DNA of 63,002 bases, counting the filler, from Actinomycetota bacterium (GTDB taxonomy: Bacteria; Actinomycetota; Acidimicrobiia; IMCC26256; VFJJ01): assembly GCA_009886115.1 (NCBI GenBank). It is 4 parts of 4 records of this genome, joined end to end, with 100 filler letters (N's around TTAATTAATTAA, not from the genome) between each part and the next. Parts side by side here need not be neighbours in the genome. Positions count along the whole stretch, not along the records: positions 1 to 10,799 come from VFJJ01000036.1; 3 more parts are not named here. The stretch is one strand, 5' to 3'. The position numbers and the translations under genes were made by a program. A model generated the notes under the pieces. The model worked only from the letters and a program-made list of their open reading frames with translations, was not told the DNA's origin and made no database searches. Below are positions 287-57,684 of the stretch, piece after piece. Position 1 is the stretch's first letter; each line of letters begins with the position of its first letter.

Positions 287-1037
287 CCAACCTGACCGTC
301 GCGGCGTGCGTGGCGTCCTTGGTCACGACGATGTCGGCTCCGGCTCGGGTCGGAGCGATGTGGTCTCGGAGGTTGGGCCCGTTCACCTGGGCCCAGACCA
401 TCTCGGCCATGTCGAGCTGCTCGGGCACGCTCAGCGTCGCGAACTGCCGGTAGAACGAGCTCTCGTCGTCGACGGCGTCCTCGCACAACCGGAGGAAGCG
501 ATCGACGTACCACGCTTCGACGTGCTCCTCTGCCGCGTCGACGTAGATCCGGCAGTGCAACCGATCGGCGAACACGGGTTGCAGCACGTTGACCCCCTCG
601 ACGATCACGACCGTCGGGTTCTCGATGCGATGCCGGCGCACGGGGTCGACGTCATAGCGCTCGTGCGAGTAGAGGGGTGCCTCGACGACTCGGTGGCCGG
701 CGCGGAGCCCGTCGAGGAACGCTGCCAAGGCCTTCTCGTCATAGGTATCGGGAAAGCCCTTGCGGTACATGGCACTCCGCTCCCCGAGGACGATATTCGG
801 GAGGAGGAAGCCGTCGGTCGACACCACGACCGCGCCGAGGTCGACGGCCAGCGCGTCGGCGATGGAGGTCTTGCCCACCGCCACGGCACCCGCGATGCCG
901 ATCAGGAACGGCCGGGGGTTCGAACGTTCGTTCGCGATCGACGCCACCGCTTCGAGCACGGCTCCGAGCGCGCTGGGCTCGGCGCGCAGGCCGGGCGCGG
1001 CCGGCGTGTGCCGGACCGTGGGCCGCTCGCCGCTCAC
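273..1037 (-). CDS. coaA: Type I pantothenate kinase (short N-terminus)
   Basis: PFLIGIAGAVAVGKT Walker A, STDGFLLPN, KGFPDTYD, PLYSHERYD, IVEGVNVLQ, WYVDRF, INGPNL-like motifs. Confidence 0.9.
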   Translation of the reverse strand: MSGERPTVRHTPAAPGLRAEPSALGAVLEAVASIANERSNPRPFLIGIAGAVAVGKTSIADALAVDLGAVVVSTDGFLLPNIVLGERSAMYRKGFPDTYDEKALAAFLDGLRAGHRVVEAPLYSHERYDVDPVRRHRIENPTVVIVEGVNVLQPVFADRLHCRIYVDAAEEHVEAWYVDRFLRLCEDAVDDESSFYRQFATLSVPEQLDMAEMVWAQVNGPNLRDHIAPTRAGADIVVTKDATHAATVRLVTTS

Positions 1038-1720
1038 GACTTCGCGGCTCGCTTGGCGGCCTTGACCCGGGCGTGCTCGAGGTCGATGGGGACGGTGCGG
1101 TCGCGCTTGATCTCGGAGAAGCTCTCGTAGCGGGCGAGCCAGGAGACGTGGCGCCAGAGCTCGATCGCGTCGGCATCGTCGGGTGGGGAGCTGATGACAG
1201 GCCCGAAGATGGCCGGACCGTCACCGTCGTCGAGCACGATCGTGGCGACGCCGAAGGCCCCGACCCGGTCTCGGACGGCGCTGCACTCCTCCTGCAGCCG
1301 CTTCCACGTGGCGGGATCTGCGATCGCATCGTCGTACAGGGCGGGGTCGAGCCCGCTGTCGGTCAGCGCGGCCCTGACCACTTCAGGGTCGCCGAGTTGC
1401 TCGAGGCCGTCCCAGGTGCGGGTGCCCAGGGCGGCGTAGAACCGTCCGACACCGTCGTCGCCAGCCCCATCGCGCACGGCCAGCGCGGTTCGCAGCATCC
1501 TGATCCCCTTACGGGGCTCGGCCTGCGCCTCATCGAGCGTGAGCGTTCTCTCGGGCGCGTTGTGAAGCTCGAGCGAGAAGCACCGCCACGACACCTCCAC
1601 CACGCCAAGCTCGACCAGCCGGCGGACCCACTTCGAGGTCAGGTAGCACCAGGGTCACAAGGGGTCGAAGTAGAACGCGATGCGCTCGCGTGCGTCTGGT
1701 GAAGTCTGACCAGAGGGCAT
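1034..1720 (-). CDS. DsbA-family / Rv2466c-like thiol oxidoreductase with in-frame TGA at the first Cys of CxxC (probable selenoprotein, 228 aa)
   Basis: ATG at 1720 gives MPSGQTSPDARERIAFYFDPL-TGA(1657-1655)-PWCYLTSKWVRR, continuing in frame into ORF 1034..1603 (GVATI cis-Pro loop region, AIFGPVI, FSEIKR); TAGGCT -10-like hexamer 5 nt upstream of the ATG. Confidence 0.8.
1619..1652 (-). promoter_or_regulatory. Candidate bacterial SECIS hairpin just 3' of the UGA
   Basis: CUGGUG/CGCCGG lower stem, GACCU/GGGUC upper stem, apical CGAAGU with G 21 nt after UGA (folded by eye). Confidence 0.55.
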
Positions 1721-5906: not shown

Positions 5907-6215
5907 GGTCAGGTTCGCCTGTGGTGGGACACCACCCCCGTCGACGTGTTCACCAACACCACGGAATTCCACCGCGCTGTCGCCGGCCGGACGGTGATCC
6001 ACGAGTTCGTCTCGACGCCGGTGCCGTTCCTCGGCTGTGGCGACCTCGCCGTGTTCAAGGCGTTCTTCAACCGCACGAAGGACTGGGCCGACATCGAGGA
6101 GATGATCGCCGCGCAGACGTTCGACGGCGACCGCGTCATCGGCGCTCTCGTGCGCCACCTGGGCGGGAGCGACGAACGCGTCGATCGGCTCCGCACCCTG
6201 CTCGGACCGATGTGA
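5907..6215 (+). pseudogene. C-terminal remnant of a nucleotidyltransferase-like hypothetical protein
   Basis: GQVRLWWDTTPVDVFTNTTEFH...DLAVFKAFFNRTKDWADIEEM resembles the K...R.KD..D tail of minimal NTase folds; no N-terminal half or start. Confidence 0.45.
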
Positions 6216-6399
6216 GACGGGATGCGCCGGCAGCCATCTCGTGATCGACCGGCAGCTCGCCGAGGCGTGGTCGCGACGGGTCCTGCCGACCGGAGCCATG
6301 TCCGAACCCGCTTCCGCGGAAGGATCATCGGACATTTCACCCGTTGGCTGGCGTCTCGGGTGAGTCCCGGCTGCTCGCCGCTAGGGTGCCATCCACCAT

Positions 6400-6465
6400 C
6401 GGCTCGGGCTCGGGCTCGAGGTGGGCACGGCACGGCACGGGCCTCGGGCACGGCACGGGCCCCGG
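6400..6465. repeat. Short intergenic tandem repeats (GGGCTC and GGCAC units)
   Basis: cggctcgggctcgggctcg and ggcacggcacggcacggg...ggcacggcacggg. Confidence 0.6.
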
Positions 6466-6506
6466 TTGGAGCCGCTGCCTTCGCGGCACCGGCGACGAGG
6501 AGACCC

Positions 6507-6989
6507 ATGACCGATCCGTCGAACGCTCCCACGGCCCCCCATCCTCCCGTCGACGCCGAGCGGCGAGCGCGCGGGCTGGCGATGTACCGGGAGGTGTACG
6601 GCGACGATGCGCCACTTCCCGAGGGCGACTCCGCCGCCGCGTTCTTCGAGCTGCTCGTGATCGACCAGCAGTTCGCCGAGGTGTGGTCGCGACGGGCACT
6701 GCCGATACCGACGCGCCGTCTGCTCACGATCGGCGTCCTGGCGGCAGTGCACCGCTTCGACATCCTCGAGTTCCAGTTCGCCCGGACCCTCGCCACCGGC
6801 GAGCTCACCCCCGAGCAGGTGCGGGAGGTGGTCATCCACCTCATCACCTACGTGGGCACACCGTCGAGCGGAAGCCTGTACCAGGCCGCCGAGTTGGCCA
6901 TCGCCGCCCACGCACGCGGCACCGCCGCCGACGCCGACGCCCGAGCCGACGGCACCGATACCTCCGGCAGTCACGGAGGAGCGTCGTGA
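6507..6989 (+). CDS. Carboxymuconolactone decarboxylase family protein
   Basis: FAEVWSRRAL...RRLLTIGVLAA...ELTPEQVREVVIHLITYVG; GAGGAG RBS. Confidence 0.85.
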   Translation: MTDPSNAPTAPHPPVDAERRARGLAMYREVYGDDAPLPEGDSAAAFFELLVIDQQFAEVWSRRALPIPTRRLLTIGVLAAVHRFDILEFQFARTLATGELTPEQVREVVIHLITYVGTPSSGSLYQAAELAIAAHARGTAADADARADGTDTSGSHGGAS

Positions 6990-10431: not shown

Positions 10432-10799
10432 TCACCGCACGGTCACGTCGTCGAAGCGCGTGCGTGACGGGGTGGAGGGCGCGTTGTCGTCGTGGCTCAC
10501 CAGGCGCAACGTCACCCGGTGCCCGATGTAGGGCCGAAGGTCGAAGCTCAGCTGGCCCCACGTCGTGGTCACCCACCGCCGCCACGCGGCGACGAAGTCG
10601 GCGACCTCCGACTGGTCGACCCCGTAGTGGAACCAGTTGCCGTTGAACTCGTGGGCGCCGCGCAAGATCGCGTCCTCTTGGCCGGTGGCCACGAGGCGCT
10701 GGCCCAGTTCGAGCCAATGAGTGTCATACGTCCCTTGGGCACCCGCCCGCCACGTCCCGCCGACCGGGAAGATACCGGTGCCGCCGAGAACCATCCGAT
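10432..10799 (-). CDS. Partial GH26-like glycoside hydrolase segment joined to a short beta-sandwich tail (5' end lost at gap)
   Basis: GTYDTHW...ILRGAHEFNGNWF...FVAAWRR (GH26 acid/base region) then WGQLSFDLRPYIGHRVTLRL...FDDVTV. Confidence 0.55.
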
Positions 10800-10899
10800 N
10801 NNNNNNNNNNNNNNNNNNNNNNNNNNNNNNNNNNNNNNNNNNNTTAATTAATTAANNNNNNNNNNNNNNNNNNNNNNNNNNNNNNNNNNNNNNNNNNNN
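10800..10899. other. Artificial contig spacer
   Basis: N-run, TTAATTAATTAA (six-frame stop), N-run. Confidence 0.98.
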
Positions 10900-10900
10900 C

Positions 10901-12340
10901 ACCACGACCACCACGACCACCACCACGACCACCACGACCACCACCACGACCACCGCGACCACCGCGACCACCGCGGTCGAGCCGCCGCCGCCGTGCCGGC
11001 CCGGGACCTCGCTCGACGGTCTCGAGACCCTGCGCAAGCTCACGGGGCCCGACGGGCGGGGGCGCTTCGACGTGCTCCGCCAACCGTACGTCCCCCTCGA
11101 CCTCCCGGGGATGGAAGCTGCCAACCTCGACGTCGAGATTCGCGAGCAGCTCAACCGGGGGCGGCTGGTGCTCGACGAGGCCCTCGGCTCGCGGGCCGAC
11201 ATCGACACCACCACGATGCTGCTCGATCGGGCCGACGTCGACGTGCTGGTGCGTCTGCGCGACAGCGGCATCACGCGAGTCGTCGTCGAGCCATCGCAGC
11301 TCGCCGCCGTGGTTCCCGTCGACGGCGTCACGATCGGACGACCGACCACCATCGGCATCGCCGATGACGACCGCGCCGACGCCGCCGTGACCCATCCCGG
11401 CATCGAGGCGCTCCTGCACGACCAGGCACCAGCGCCGCTGAAGGTGCACCGATTCCTCGCCGCCGTGTCGTTCGCAGCGCTCGAGCGACCGAGTGAGGCC
11501 CGGGGCGTGGTGTTGCTGAGTCGCTGGGAGTCACGGCCTGATCCCGACGTCGTGCAGGCGCTCCTCGGCCTGCTCGACGACCACCCGCTGATCCGGATGC
11601 GGACCCTGAGCGACTACTTCGGCACCGTCGAGCGGGAACAAGGGGAGTCGGCCCTCATCGAACGCGAGTTCCAGCTCGTCGAGCAGCGACCGCTGGTGGT
11701 CAACGGCAGCACCATCGCCGACACCCGCAACATCCTCGGCGCCTACGAGAGCTGGATCGGAGCGGACGCCGCGGCCGACGTCCTCAAGGGGCGCCGCAAC
11801 GTGCTCATCGCCGAGCGCGCCGGTCTCGACGTCGAGACCGCCAAGGCCTTCCTCGACGAAGCCACGGCCCCGATCAACGCCCTCCTCAGCCAGGTGACGT
11901 TCAGGACGTCGTCGCAGCTGACGATCACCGCCCGCCAGGCCCAGCTCGGGGTGCAGTTCACCAATGACAGCAACCGGACCGTCGAGGTACGGCTCGAGCT
12001 GTCCGGGCCCAAGGTCAACTTCCTCGACGCGCCGAGACCGGGCGAGACCATCGAGCTCCCGCCCGGTCCGTTCGAACAGACCTTCCACTTCGAGGTTCAA
12101 GCGTCGGGTGACAGCTCGTTGCGGGTCACGATGTCGTCGCCCGACGGGGGCATTCCCCTGGGCACGAACGACGTTCGGATCCGCAACTTCGCGTTCCGGG
12201 GCCTGGCCGCGTGGATCACCGTCGCCGCCGCCGTGTTCCTGGCCCTGTGGTGGGGAACCCACATCCGGCGCAACCGGCGCCGGAGCGCCAACCGGTCCCG
12301 GGTCGGGCGATCGGGTCCCGAGCTCCCGGCCGACCCGTGA
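10901..12340 (+). CDS. DUF6049-like membrane-anchored protein upstream of murJ (5' partial, begins in poly-Thr tract)
   Basis: PYVPLD, LTITARQAQLGVQFTNDSNRTVEVRLEL, ASGDSSLRVTMSSPDG, C-terminal TM; conserved position before murJ in actinobacteria. Confidence 0.7.
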   Translation, partial: TTTTTTTTTTTTTTTTTTATTATTAVEPPPPCRPGTSLDGLETLRKLTGPDGRGRFDVLRQPYVPLDLPGMEAANLDVEIREQLNRGRLVLDEALGSRADIDTTTMLLDRADVDVLVRLRDSGITRVVVEPSQLAAVVPVDGVTIGRPTTIGIADDDRADAAVTHPGIEALLHDQAPAPLKVHRFLAAVSFAALERPSEARGVVLLSRWESRPDPDVVQALLGLLDDHPLIRMRTLSDYFGTVEREQGESALIEREFQLVEQRPLVVNGSTIADTRNILGAYESWIGADAAADVLKGRRNVLIAERAGLDVETAKAFLDEATAPINALLSQVTFRTSSQLTITARQAQLGVQFTNDSNRTVEVRLELSGPKVNFLDAPRPGETIELPPGPFEQTFHFEVQASGDSSLRVTMSSPDGGIPLGTNDVRIRNFAFRGLAAWITVAAAVFLALWWGTHIRRNRRRSANRSRVGRSGPELPADP

Positions 12341-49364: not shown

Positions 49365-50303
49365 GAGCCTGTTGGCAAAGTTTTGGCTGGTAGTGTGCTG
49401 GATTGCCACTATCTCGGGCGGTAACTCTGATATAATATATTCATGAACGAACCTCGACAACCATATATGCCTACCTGGCGTACCGCGCATGGCGATATGA
49501 GCGATGAAGAGTGGGCTCTTATCGAGGATCTTGTTGCCCCAGCTTCGGGTGGGGGTCGGATGGGTCGACCGGTGCGCAACGACCGTCGCCGGATCGTCGA
49601 CGCGATCTTCTTCGTCGCTGCGACCGGCTGCCAGTGGCGGGCTCTGCCGTCGTGTTACCCGAACTGGAACAGCGTGCACCGCTATCACCTGACCTGGTCC
49701 AGGGATGGGACCTGGGAACAAATCGCGACCCGCCTCGCCCAGCAAGTCCGGGAGCTCGAGGGCCGCCACCCTGAGGCCTCGGCCGGGATCATCGACGCTC
49801 GCAGCGTCCGCGGTGCCGCCACTGTCACCAGCACTACCAGGGGATACGACGCCGGGAAGAAGATCTCGGGCCGAAAGACGTTCGGGATCGTCGACACGCT
49901 GGGTCTGATCATCGCAGTGGTCGTCATGGCGGCGAGCACCTCCGACAACGCTGGCGGGATCGCCGTCGTGGACCGGGCCCGTCCCAAGACCAAGCGGCTC
50001 TCGAAGCTCTGGGCTGACGCCGGGTTCAAAGTCGTGTTCGCCCAGCACTGCCGACGACAGAACATCAACGTCGAGGTCGTCCACAAGATCCATCCGCACA
50101 CCTTCGAGATCCTTCCTCAACGCTGGATCGTTGAACGGACCTGGTCCTGGCTCATGAACAACCGCCGCCTCCAGATCGACTATGAACGCGACCCCCAGAT
50201 CACAGAAGGCTTCATATGGGCCGCCCACACCCGTATGTTGCTCCGCCGTCTAACCGATCCGCATAACACCTGATCGCGCTGCATAAACATTCGCGACAGC
50301 CTC
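49365..50303 (+). mobile_element. IS5-family insertion sequence (IS1031-like), 939 bp, TCA target duplication
   Basis: Imperfect TIRs GAGCCTGTTGGCAAAGTTT / GAGGCTGTCGCGAATGTTT (rc); TCA at 49362-49364 and 50304-50306; lower GC. Confidence 0.9.
49443..50273 (+). CDS. IS5-family DDE transposase
   Basis: DMSDEEW, TGCQWRALP, IIDARSV, GYDAGKKISGRK, ADAGF, RWIVERTWSWL...RRL..DYE. Confidence 0.95.
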   Translation: MNEPRQPYMPTWRTAHGDMSDEEWALIEDLVAPASGGGRMGRPVRNDRRRIVDAIFFVAATGCQWRALPSCYPNWNSVHRYHLTWSRDGTWEQIATRLAQQVRELEGRHPEASAGIIDARSVRGAATVTSTTRGYDAGKKISGRKTFGIVDTLGLIIAVVVMAASTSDNAGGIAVVDRARPKTKRLSKLWADAGFKVVFAQHCRRQNINVEVVHKIHPHTFEILPQRWIVERTWSWLMNNRRLQIDYERDPQITEGFIWAAHTRMLLRRLTDPHNT

Positions 50304-55635: not shown

Positions 55636-57684
55636 ATGTCCACGCAGACCGTCCTCGGTACCTGTCACCACGACTGCCCCGACTCGTGCGGATGGATCGC
55701 CACCGTCACCGATGGTGTGGCCGTGTCGCTGCGGGGCAATCCCGAGCACCCGTTCTCGCAGGGCGAGCTGTGCCCCAAGGTCAACCGGTTCCTCGAGCGC
55801 GTGTACCACCCCGACCGCATCCTCACGCCGCTGCGGAGGGTCGGAGCCAAGGGCGATGGCGCGTTCGAGCCCGTTTCGTGGGACGACGCGCTCGCCGAGG
55901 TCGCCGCGAGGTTGCACGAGATCCTCGACGAGCTCGGCGGCGAGTCCGTGCTGCCCTGGCGCGACGCCGGCACCCAGGGCCTGCTGCAGATGAAAAGTCT
56001 CGACCAACGGTTCTTCGCCCGCCTCGGGGCGAGCCGTCAGGTGGGCGAGCTGTGCGGTGCCACGGCGGCGGCGGGGACGGCCACCACGCTCGGGTCGGGA
56101 CGCGCGTCCGATCCGAGCGACGTGCGCCACGCCGAGCTCGTGCTGTTGTGGGGCACGAACACCCGCCTCACGAACCGCCATCTGTGGCCGTTCGTCGAAG
56201 AGGCCCGGGCCAAAGGGGCCACGATCGTGGTGATCGACCCGTTGCGGACGGCGACGGCCGAGCAGGCCGATTGGTTCCTCCAGCCGCTGCCGGGCACCGA
56301 CGTGGCGCTGATGCTCGGCGTGGTGCACGTCCTCGTGCGTGACGACCACCTCGACCACGACTACCTCGAGCGCCACACCACCGGGTTTGAAGCGCTCGCC
56401 GAGCAGGCGGCCGGGTGGACCCCGGCCCGGGCCGCTGCTGCGTGCGGACTCGATCCCGCCGACGTCGAACGTCTCGGAGCGCTCTACGGCAGCACCCGCA
56501 AGTCGTTCATCCGCACGCTCATCGGCGCCGAGCACCACGAGCACGGCGCCATGTTCTTCCGCACGCTCTCGTGCCTGCCCGCGCTCACGGGGGCCTGGCG
56601 CGAGCGCGGTGGCGGGTACGCGCGCAGCGTCGGCACCTGGTTCGACGGCGTGGTCGACGTCAACGCGTTCGCAGCACCACAGCTCTGGCCGGCAGGCGAG
56701 CCACGGGCCATCAGCATGAACCATCTGGGCCGGGCCCTCACCGACGAGTCGCTCGTCCCCCCGGTGCGGGCGCTGTTCGTGTGGAACGGCAACCCGGTGG
56801 TCACCGCGCCCCATGCCGGGCTCATCCGGCAGGGCCTGGTCCGCGACGACCTCCTGTGCGTGGTGAGCGAGCAGTTCCTCACCGACACCGCCCGTTTCGC
56901 CGACATCGTGTTTCCTGCGACGACGCAGCTCGAGCAACGCGATGTCGTGCCGGCGTGGGGGCACCTGTATCTCGGCTGGAACGAGCCGGCCATCGCCCCG
57001 CTCGGCGAAGCGGTGCCCAACACCGAGCTGTGGCGGCGACTGGCCCGGGCCATGGGGTTCACCGAGCCCGAGCTGTTCGCAACCGACGACGAGCTGCTCG
57101 CCATGGGGCTGGCGCCGACGGGCGGGGTCGACGTCGCCGCGTTGCGAACGCGGGGCTGGGCCCGGCTCGACCTGCCCGACGATCTGGGCCCGTACCGCGA
57201 CGGGGGTTTCGCGACGCCGACGGGTCGAGCCGACCTGGGCGAGGTCAACCCGCCGGAGTACGTGGGGGCAACCGAGGGCCCAGATGGCGATCAGGAAGCA
57301 CGGCGACGTTTCCCGCTCCAGCTCCTGACGCCCAAGCAGCACACCCGGTTCCTCAACTCGTCGTACGGCCACCTCCCGGCCCATGCGCCGATCGAGGGCC
57401 GTCCGTTCGTCGAGATCCACCCGGTCGATGCCGCCGCTCGGGGCATCGGCGACGGCGATCGCGTGCTGGTGCACAACGACCGGGCCACGCTCACGCTCCC
57501 GGCCCGCCTGGGCACCCGGGTGCGCCCCGGGCTGGTGTCGGTCCCGTTCGGGTGGGGTCAGGTCCAGCACGGTGAAGCGGCCACGGCCAACTCGCTCACC
57601 AACGACGCCCTCGCCGACTGGGGTGGCGGCGTCGCGTTCTCGAGCACGCTGGTCGAGGTCTCGCTGGCGGCCGTCGAGCAGTAG
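55636..57684 (+). CDS. Molybdopterin-dependent oxidoreductase (DMSO reductase superfamily)
   Basis: CHHDCPDSC...LCPK Fe-S motif, VSWDDAL, PGTDVAL, TDTARFADIVFPAT, IHPVDAAARGIGDGD. Confidence 0.92.
   Translation: MSTQTVLGTCHHDCPDSCGWIATVTDGVAVSLRGNPEHPFSQGELCPKVNRFLERVYHPDRILTPLRRVGAKGDGAFEPVSWDDALAEVAARLHEILDELGGESVLPWRDAGTQGLLQMKSLDQRFFARLGASRQVGELCGATAAAGTATTLGSGRASDPSDVRHAELVLLWGTNTRLTNRHLWPFVEEARAKGATIVVIDPLRTATAEQADWFLQPLPGTDVALMLGVVHVLVRDDHLDHDYLERHTTGFEALAEQAAGWTPARAAAACGLDPADVERLGALYGSTRKSFIRTLIGAEHHEHGAMFFRTLSCLPALTGAWRERGGGYARSVGTWFDGVVDVNAFAAPQLWPAGEPRAISMNHLGRALTDESLVPPVRALFVWNGNPVVTAPHAGLIRQGLVRDDLLCVVSEQFLTDTARFADIVFPATTQLEQRDVVPAWGHLYLGWNEPAIAPLGEAVPNTELWRRLARAMGFTEPELFATDDELLAMGLAPTGGVDVAALRTRGWARLDLPDDLGPYRDGGFATPTGRADLGEVNPPEYVGATEGPDGDQEARRRFPLQLLTPKQHTRFLNSSYGHLPAHAPIEGRPFVEIHPVDAAARGIGDGDRVLVHNDRATLTLPARLGTRVRPGLVSVPFGWGQVQHGEAATANSLTNDALADWGGGVAFSSTLVEVSLAAVEQ

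Follow-up and report, generated by a model that had tools for sequence, protein, structure and literature searches.

A predicted selenoprotein of the Rv2466c-like oxidoreductase family in Actinomycetota, truncated by gene calling at an in-frame TGA

When a TGA codon interrupts the gene of a thioredoxin-fold oxidoreductase exactly where the nucleophilic cysteine is expected, is it a stop, an error, or a codon for selenocysteine (Sec)? This question is raised by a minus-strand locus at positions 1034-1720 of a 63,002-nucleotide stretch of DNA from an Actinomycetota bacterium (GenBank assembly GCA_009886115.1), here called the window, along which all positions are counted. An earlier note on this DNA had proposed that the locus hides a selenoprotein with a UxxC active site (U being Sec) from annotation, and this core claim is upheld by the sharing of the TGA among related genes, by selection on the codons upstream of it, and by the alignment of cysteine-containing homologues at the same position. 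It is highly likely, on the sequence evidence assembled below, that the locus is a real, conserved and mis-annotated gene for an Rv2466c-like, DsbA-like UxxC selenoprotein in which UGA is decoded as Sec.

The frame begins with an ATG at 1720-1718, runs through 21 sense codons to the TGA at 1657-1655 (codon 22), and then remains open to a TGA stop at 1036-1034. Sequence and translation agree with the earlier description of a frame extending through a single TGA to the ATG at 1720, as no other in-frame TGA lies between the start codon and the terminal stop, and read-through translation gives 228 residues, MPSGQTSPDARERIAFYFDPL-(TGA)-PWCYLTSKW..., with TGA as codon 22. The mechanical open reading frame (ORF) call for the locus is a shorter frame of 189 amino acids (1034-1603, minus strand) with a GTG start at codon 40, and the window's own entry in the protein collection, P0002, is exactly this form. 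Gene callers therefore do truncate the gene, as had also been claimed, and the 189-residue ORF appears to be an artefact of annotation and not a separate gene. Missed by gene callers are the 21 codons 5' of the TGA (1658-1720, minus strand), which encode MPSGQTSPDARERIAFYFDPL, including strand beta-1, and which are supported by their substitution pattern and by the strand in a structural model. TGA is the commonest stop in the window, ending 36 of the 58 ORFs with high GC content at third codon positions, and a genome-wide change of code in which TGA is a sense codon was therefore rejected.

The full-length translation matches the Pfam family PF22234 (Rv2466c-like) along the whole of its 180-position profile with 83.3 bits, where the cut-off is 27, and PF01323 (DSBA) with 49.4 bits against a cut-off of 25.6. 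No NCBIfam model matches this protein or the related protein of locus L002, described below. In the PDB, four sequences that belong to Rv2466c and its orthologues match with E-values from 2e-23 to 3e-22, and the FDPLCPWC of these relatives aligns with FDPL-TGA-PWC, placing the TGA opposite the first Cys. These matches confirm the Rv2466c/DsbA-like family assignment of the earlier note. An AlphaFold model, built from an 80-sequence alignment with window residue 22 entered as C in place of U, reached a predicted local distance difference test score (pLDDT) of 94.1 and a predicted template modelling score (pTM) of 0.91. In this model, strand beta-1 comprises residues 12-18 and helix alpha-1 begins at residue 23; therefore, residue 22 occupies the classical nucleophile position. 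The ten best structural matches in the PDB are all Rv2466c or its Mycobacterium leprae orthologue, with template modelling (TM) scores of 0.67-0.84, E-values of 2e-12 to 6e-11, and 28-32% identity in the structural alignment. FrnE-type DsbA-like structures are only distant matches (E-values of about 1e-6 to 1e-5, TM scores of about 0.5).

The predicted active site, U-P-W-C (TGA-CCC-TGG-TGC), stands in the window protein together with the PF01323 domain. Its fourth codon, the TGC at 1646-1648 on the minus strand, specifies Cys25 by the codon table, which would be the resolving Cys. Where the Rv2466c-like family has C-P-W-C, the window protein has U-P-W-C at the same position with the other three residues retained, so that U-P-W-C, as predicted, is a Sec variant of the family motif and not a loss of it. 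A homology search with the window protein returned 593 proteins at E ≤ 1e-10, and among the best 120 of these the first Cys is kept in 116, as CPWC in 110 and as CPWA or CPWS in six, the remaining four being forms short at the N-terminus. In the 80-sequence alignment, C22 is invariant, the window residue again being written as C for U. Thus, the placement of the TGA exactly at the nucleophilic Cys, as first proposed from the window alone, agrees with both the PDB alignment and the Cys of the homologues. The six CPWA or CPWS forms among the 120 listed (P0046, P0048, P0057, P0074, P0096, and P0111) are natural monothiol forms with the first Cys only, and they fit a monothiol mechanism in this family. 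A further difference lies at codon 159 (1244-1246, minus strand), where the thioredoxin-fold cis-Pro position before strand beta-3 is occupied by Ala, giving GVAT in place of GVPT. This Ala is common to the window protein, L001, P0003, and P0004, whereas Pro is found in L002 and in at least 90% of the 80 aligned homologues.

The strongest evidence comes from other genomes. A genome scan provided 20 loci, in 16 of which the motif was located, the search pattern having missed it in L014, L015, L019, and L020. Among the 16, the codon at the active-site position is TGC or TGT in 14 and TGA in two, L001 and L002, whose MAGs (metagenome-assembled genomes) include the contigs JANLSK010000006.1 and CAWFWE010000001.1. 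The first of these, from a different MAG and on the contig that encodes P0005, reads MPSGQTAPDARERIAFYFDPL-(TGA)-PWCYLTSKW with TGA at the same codon, and its protein is identical to the window protein at 175 of 226 aligned residues (about 77%). The second, from a third MAG, has a complete frame of 221 amino acids, MAEQVVFWFDPL-U-PWCFVTSKW..., with TGA again at the same codon, and is more distant (122 of 215 aligned residues identical, about 57%). In all three genomes, the frame continues uninterrupted both before and after the TGA. An absence of the TGA from every relative, which the earlier note had named as telling against its proposal, is thus not what is seen, and by these comparisons the TGA is neither a private nonsense mutation nor a sequencing error.

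Truncated annotations extend the pattern beyond these three genes. Among the best 120 of the 593 matches, the top four, one of which is the window's own entry, have only 187-189 amino acids, whereas the others have about 205-240. The first residue of the other three in this group, P0003, P0004, and P0005 (72-77% identity), corresponds exactly to Val40, with which the ORF called in the window also begins. A second search with the L002 protein gave 694 matches at E ≤ 1e-20, of which the best 120 were listed and contributed 73 new representatives. Of these, 35, comprising 136 member sequences that are 68-91% identical to L002 and 200-207 amino acids long, begin with [M/V]TS[K/R]WV, a start that corresponds to a GTG five codons past the TGA of L002; among the others, 37 have CPWC and one is a fragment. 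Together with P0003, P0004, and P0005, this amounts to 38 metagenomic protein clusters that start at the first start codon past the TGA position. The artefactual internal start lies at codon 40 in the clade of the window gene (clade A) and at codon 27 in that of L002 (clade B); in both cases, whichever start codon comes first past the TGA is the one called. A product from such a start would be missing beta-1, the active site, and at least part of alpha-1. Five other proteins that are short at the N-terminus (P0198, P0200, P0207, P0213, and P0214; 40-56% identity) start at query residues 32-48, and these could be further TGA-type lineages or mere fragments.

Substitutions between the window gene and L001 bear on whether the codons before the TGA are translated. 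In codons 1-21 there are five synonymous differences and one non-synonymous difference, corresponding to a proportion of synonymous differences (pS) of 0.341 and of non-synonymous differences (pN) of 0.021, while in the rest of the gene pS is 0.467 and pN is 0.162. The excess of synonymous changes implies that the upstream codons are translated, and the pattern indicates that the peptide 5' of the TGA is under strong purifying selection. Nucleotide similarity between the two loci begins at the ATG and is lost further upstream, and residues 23-39 are identical in the two proteins.

A Sec insertion sequence (SECIS) downstream of the UGA is plausible, and two hairpins on the minus strand, numbered here with the U of UGA as +1, are candidates for binding by SelB. 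The first, H1 (1625-1640, +18 to +33), has a 5-bp stem and a hexaloop CGAAGU, and the second, H2 (1603-1624, +34 to +55), has an 8-bp stem with one bulged U and an apical loop GGUCG; from the comparison of pairing, either might be the SECIS or part of it. All five pairs of H1 form in 3/3 TGA genes and in 0/14 Cys-type genes, which form two to four of the five. Across the three TGA genes the sole difference in H1 lies in the loop, G or A at +27 (CGAAGU or CGAAAU), with no covariation. The H2 pairs formed in the TGA genes number 8, 8, and 6 of 8. In the 62 nucleotides from the TGA, the window gene and L001 differ at only two positions, one in the H1 loop and one changing G38-U51 to G38-C51, while in H2 of L002 a compensatory change replaces G35-C54 with A35-U54 and the bulge is shifted. 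A bacterial SECIS is expected close behind the UGA and to have a small apical loop with a G, and a G is present in both hairpin loops. Within the 18 codons after the TGA, 2/16 codons for the same residue differ between the window gene and L001, against 53/131 in the comparison set (one-sided p = 0.023). A long-range minimum-free-energy fold of the window RNA was rejected as a conserved structure, since the A that replaces G at +27 in L001 and L002 cannot form one of its pairs. In the SECIS of Escherichia coli fdhF, an apical loop containing GGUC lies about 20 nt past the UGA; H1 matches this element in spacing, and H2 in its loop motif.

Several results weigh against Sec decoding, or against these hairpins as its signal. 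The corresponding codon comparisons are not significant for the window gene and L002 (4/11 versus 49/96, p = 0.27) or for L001 and L002 (3/12 versus 42/91, p = 0.14). A 71-nt stretch folds no better than its shuffles (z = -0.86), and Cys-type loci fold about equally well, leaving folding energy non-discriminating. H2 is not specific, as Cys-type genes form 2-7 of its eight pairs, with seven in L003, and the Cys-type L007 has an identical GGUCG loop. The three TGA genes are kin, and the contrast of 3/3 with 0/14 for H1 is therefore no independent count. An Rfam search of 1480-1760 at E-values up to 10 gave no SECIS family, with a spurious CRISPR-DR36 as its only match. Neither the 63-kb window nor the roughly 20 kb surrounding L001 and L002 contains selA/SelA, selB/SelB, selD/SelD, or a tRNA-Sec; the Pfam scans for Sec machinery covered 79 ORFs of the window, 20 of L001, and 21 of L002, and the ARAGORN search for tRNA-Sec was negative for the window and for 14 loci. 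Finally, it is from start positions and not from DNA that the TGA is deduced in P0003, P0004, and the 35 relatives of L002.

At gathering thresholds, Rfam reports only three tRNAs across the whole window. When the window, L001, and L002 were scanned by script for other genes with in-frame TGA codons, the only candidates were antisense frames or neighbours sharing a frame; since the scan recovered the gene of L002 and missed those of the window and L001, this is a weak negative.

Would the host be expected to use Sec at all? The nearest named relatives of the window's GyrB (about 75% identity) are MAGs labelled Acidimicrobiia, a class to which we also take the genus Ilumatobacter to belong. In the supplement to a 2016 survey, Ilumatobacter coccineus and I. 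nonamiensis are recorded as SelD+, SelA+, and SelB+, with 15 and 10 selenoproteins, respectively (PMC5029168), and a 2006 survey ranks Actinobacteria as one of the three phyla with the most selenoprotein families (PMC1794560). In addition, a 2026 preprint describes Sec machinery in all 84 Actinomarina genomes, and reports that the Rfam SECIS models also fail in these Sec-using Acidimicrobiia. Sec use therefore has precedent in the lineage of the window, and the earlier statement that it is uncommon in the phylum was too strong in light of the 2006 survey, Ilumatobacter, and Actinomarina.

The alternative that survives best is a reading of the UGA without selenium, either by low-efficiency near-cognate insertion of Cys or Trp or as a regulatory stop that limits expression. 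Conservation on both sides of the codon demonstrates decoding and not the identity of the residue inserted, and the SECIS assignment is only suggestive, which gives this alternative some footing. It is nonetheless improbable, given that the codon falls exactly on the redox-active Cys of a CxxC motif, a documented Sec/Cys site in many families, DsbA-like proteins among them. Trp as the nucleophile would kill the enzyme, and if Cys were what is needed, a single mutation would give TGC, but two clades have kept TGA. All three genes also have a structured region 3' of the TGA.

A slightly poorer case can be made for a pseudogene, in which a nonsense mutation, private or ancestral, struck the catalytic Cys codon of a gene that is now decaying. 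The lack of Sec machinery in the regions scanned would suit a decaying gene, as would the adjacent upstream SRPBCC gene, which looks frameshifted and raises the possibility of damaged genes or misassembly in this part of the DNA. Against this, the identical TGA is retained down to 57% identity in genes that are otherwise open and full length, and purifying selection acts on both sides of it, with the 5:1 ratio upstream and a pN of 0.16 against a pS of 0.47 in the remainder. About 40 lineages appear to share the feature, and the three genes read contain no further stops or frameshifts, as decay would bring. A pseudogene is for these reasons hardly probable.

Still less probable is that the 189-residue product from the GTG at 1603 is the real protein and the upstream frame a small ORF or leader. 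This is the form reported by gene callers, but translation from Val40 would leave out strand beta-1, helix alpha-1, and the motif of the active site, the position of the internal start differs between clade A (codon 40) and clade B (codon 27), and residues 23-39 are identical in the window protein and L001. A sequencing or assembly error with a true codon of TGC or TGT, for which the metagenome-like character of the window sequence and the possible indel in the neighbouring gene might speak, has a negligible chance of being correct, as TGA stands at the same codon in three independent assemblies and predicted proteins from many other datasets are cut at the same place. The shared TGA, the purifying selection upstream of it, the use of TGA as an ordinary stop elsewhere in the window, and the hairpins together make decoding as Sec the best explanation.

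For the selenoprotein predicted here, a mechanism may be proposed. The product would be a cytoplasmic thioredoxin-fold reductase in the Rv2466c-like branch of the DsbA-like superfamily, with a U-P-W-C active site. SelB carrying Sec-tRNA(Sec) would bind an mRNA stem-loop close 3' of the UGA at codon 22, the best candidates being H1 (1640-1625) and H2 (1624-1603), leading to the insertion of Sec. Sec22 would then lie at the N-terminus of helix alpha-1, where thioredoxin-fold enzymes carry their nucleophilic Cys, and its attack on S-thiolated proteins or on the disulfides of a substrate could give rise to a selenenylsulfide. By analogy to the monothiol and dithiol mechanisms of Rv2466c, this intermediate might be resolved by Cys25 or by a low-molecular-weight thiol. 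Mycothiol may be that thiol partner, a suggestion that comes from the name of the family alone.

A review characterizes Rv2466c, or mycoredoxin-2, as a reductase that is DsbA-like, depends on mycothiol, and uses both a monothiol and a dithiol mechanism (PMC6178380). The window protein resembles Rv2466c and its M. leprae orthologue (4NXI, 4ZIL, 5XUR, and 4WKW) in matching PF22234 over the whole profile, in having the same fold, and in carrying the motif where beta-1 ends and alpha-1 begins. Unlike Rv2466c, it has a predicted Sec for the first Cys and is only 28-32% identical, and its clade A differs from the Rv2466c family in having Ala at the cis-Pro position. The hosts also differ, with Rv2466c found in Mycobacteriales and the window protein in an uncultured Actinomycetota lineage nearest Acidimicrobiia.

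Among known selenoproteins, the closest parallel by description is the DsbA-like form 1, which was assigned to COG2761, a group that we take to be the FrnE-type group. The window protein is only distantly similar to FrnE structures, and its comparison with form 1 is one of description and not of sequence. DsbA-like UxxC selenoproteins were reported from the Sargasso Sea in 2005, with nine sequences and an assignment to COG2761 (PMC1088965), and subsequently from Anaeromyxobacter dehalogenans, Desulfovibrio desulfuricans, and Desulfotomaculum reducens (PMC1794560); a 2016 survey counted them in 41 organisms (PMC5029168), and a 2026 review lists a 'DsbA-like protein form 1, PF01323, UxxC' (PMC13188914). 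The window protein is like form 1 in having UxxC with Sec for the N-terminal Cys, widespread Cys homologues, and a PF01323 match above the cut-off, while the hosts named for form 1 are Deltaproteobacteria, Clostridia, or marine metagenomes, in contrast to the Actinomycetota host of the window. A word search of the 2026 review found no occurrence of Rv2466c, mycothiol, or Actinobacteria (PMC13188914), and no paper treating Rv2466c and selenocysteine together was found in the literature searched. In a wider circle, the bacterial UxxC thioredoxin, glutaredoxin, Prx-like, and thiol-disulfide isomerase-like selenoproteins likewise have Sec at the CxxC nucleophile and Cys orthologues elsewhere (PMC1088965), although the window protein is distinguished from other UxxC thioredoxin-fold selenoproteins by its DsbA-type helical insertion and PF22234 match. 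The principle is therefore not new, as Sec in place of the nucleophilic Cys in a thioredoxin-fold CxxC, including that of DsbA-like proteins, has been known for two decades. What would be new is the subfamily and the host group, for which no earlier report was found in the literature searched, and which would form a new branch of a known class of selenoproteins.

This branch has consequences for annotation. The window gene, the two MAG genes, and about 38 clusters are listed as proteins of 187-207 amino acids without an active site, some of them as 'hypothetical protein', and correctly read, these truncated entries would be full-length UxxC enzymes. Among the DsbA-like reductases, selenium use would now include the branch of Rv2466c/mycoredoxin-2, in Actinomycetota of soil and other environments. 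As closely related Sec and Cys forms have the same downstream hairpins, the family offers a compact system for the origin of a SECIS inside a coding sequence, and the Sec/Cys pair is also suited to asking which advantage a monothiol reductase draws from having Sec in place of Cys.

The relation between the Sec and Cys forms can be followed in two trees. A careful tree with 41 rows unites the four TGA forms of clade A with support of 100/100, joins L002 to 21 Cys forms that make up a tight clade (93/85), and places all of them within one clade (87/95); uniting the five TGA rows is not rejected by the approximately unbiased (AU) test (p = 0.353). In a quick tree of 80 rows, to which the 35 truncated relatives of L002 were added and counted as TGA by their start position, the topology is (A4, (Cys21, (P0158 Cys, B36))). 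The TGA label requires two changes on this tree, of which the starred branches force only one. The topology implies either two gains of TGA, or one gain followed by reversions. Both TGA clades share two hairpins built from conserved codons (T-S-K-W-V and L-V-E-L), and the hairpins may therefore predate the first TGA. The loss of cis-Pro in clade A and the translational coupling to a pantothenate-kinase-like gene might hint at a partner such as coenzyme A (CoA) instead of mycothiol. A broader scenario, tentative and rather doubtful as a whole, would be an Rv2466c-like subfamily that switches repeatedly between Cys and Sec, in which a SECIS-competent coding structure existed before the first TGA, and which represents the first selenium enzyme of the mycoredoxin-2 type, with a thiol partner other than mycothiol, for example CoA. 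If true, it would be a natural example of the birth of a new selenoprotein.

The kinase gene lies directly downstream at 273-1037 on the minus strand and encodes a type I pantothenate-kinase-like P-loop kinase, with a GTG start that overlaps the stop of the selenoprotein gene (GTGA). It matches TIGR00554 with 214.7 bits, below the cut-off of 235 and without the first approximately 75 profile positions, and PF00485 with an E-value of 3e-5. The two genes are probably co-transcribed. Their pairing recurs only in L001 (approximately 10729-11394), one of the 20 loci, and it may hint at a link with the thiol metabolism of CoA. Between 200 and 2700, no sigma-70-like promoter or intrinsic terminator was found. 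Upstream, an SRPBCC/polyketide-cyclase-like gene at 1744-1988 on the minus strand is split over two frames near 1900, with its first piece matching profile positions 6-42 of 142, and is either a frameshifted pseudogene or the product of an assembly indel. An ArsR/SmtB regulator (2188-2547) adjoins it.

Elsewhere in the window, a second candidate selenoprotein was considered on the plus strand at 5946-6986, where an ORF at 5946-6215 ends in a TGA at 6213-6215 and a CMD/AhpD-like ORF follows from 6222. It was rejected as a coincidence of frame, because a low-complexity stretch follows the TGA, with the start of the domain some 150 residues further on. Both the window (55636-57681, plus strand) and L002 (419-2551, plus strand) encode a molybdopterin oxidoreductase whose N-terminus carries an Fe4S4 domain, each as an uninterrupted ORF without an in-frame TGA. 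An IS4/5-family transposase lies at 49443-50270 of the window. The region from 18560 to 39950 is that of the chromosomal origin, with trxB-trxA, parB-parA, gidB, jag, yidC, dnaA, dnaN, recF, a DciA-family gene, gyrB, and gyrA.

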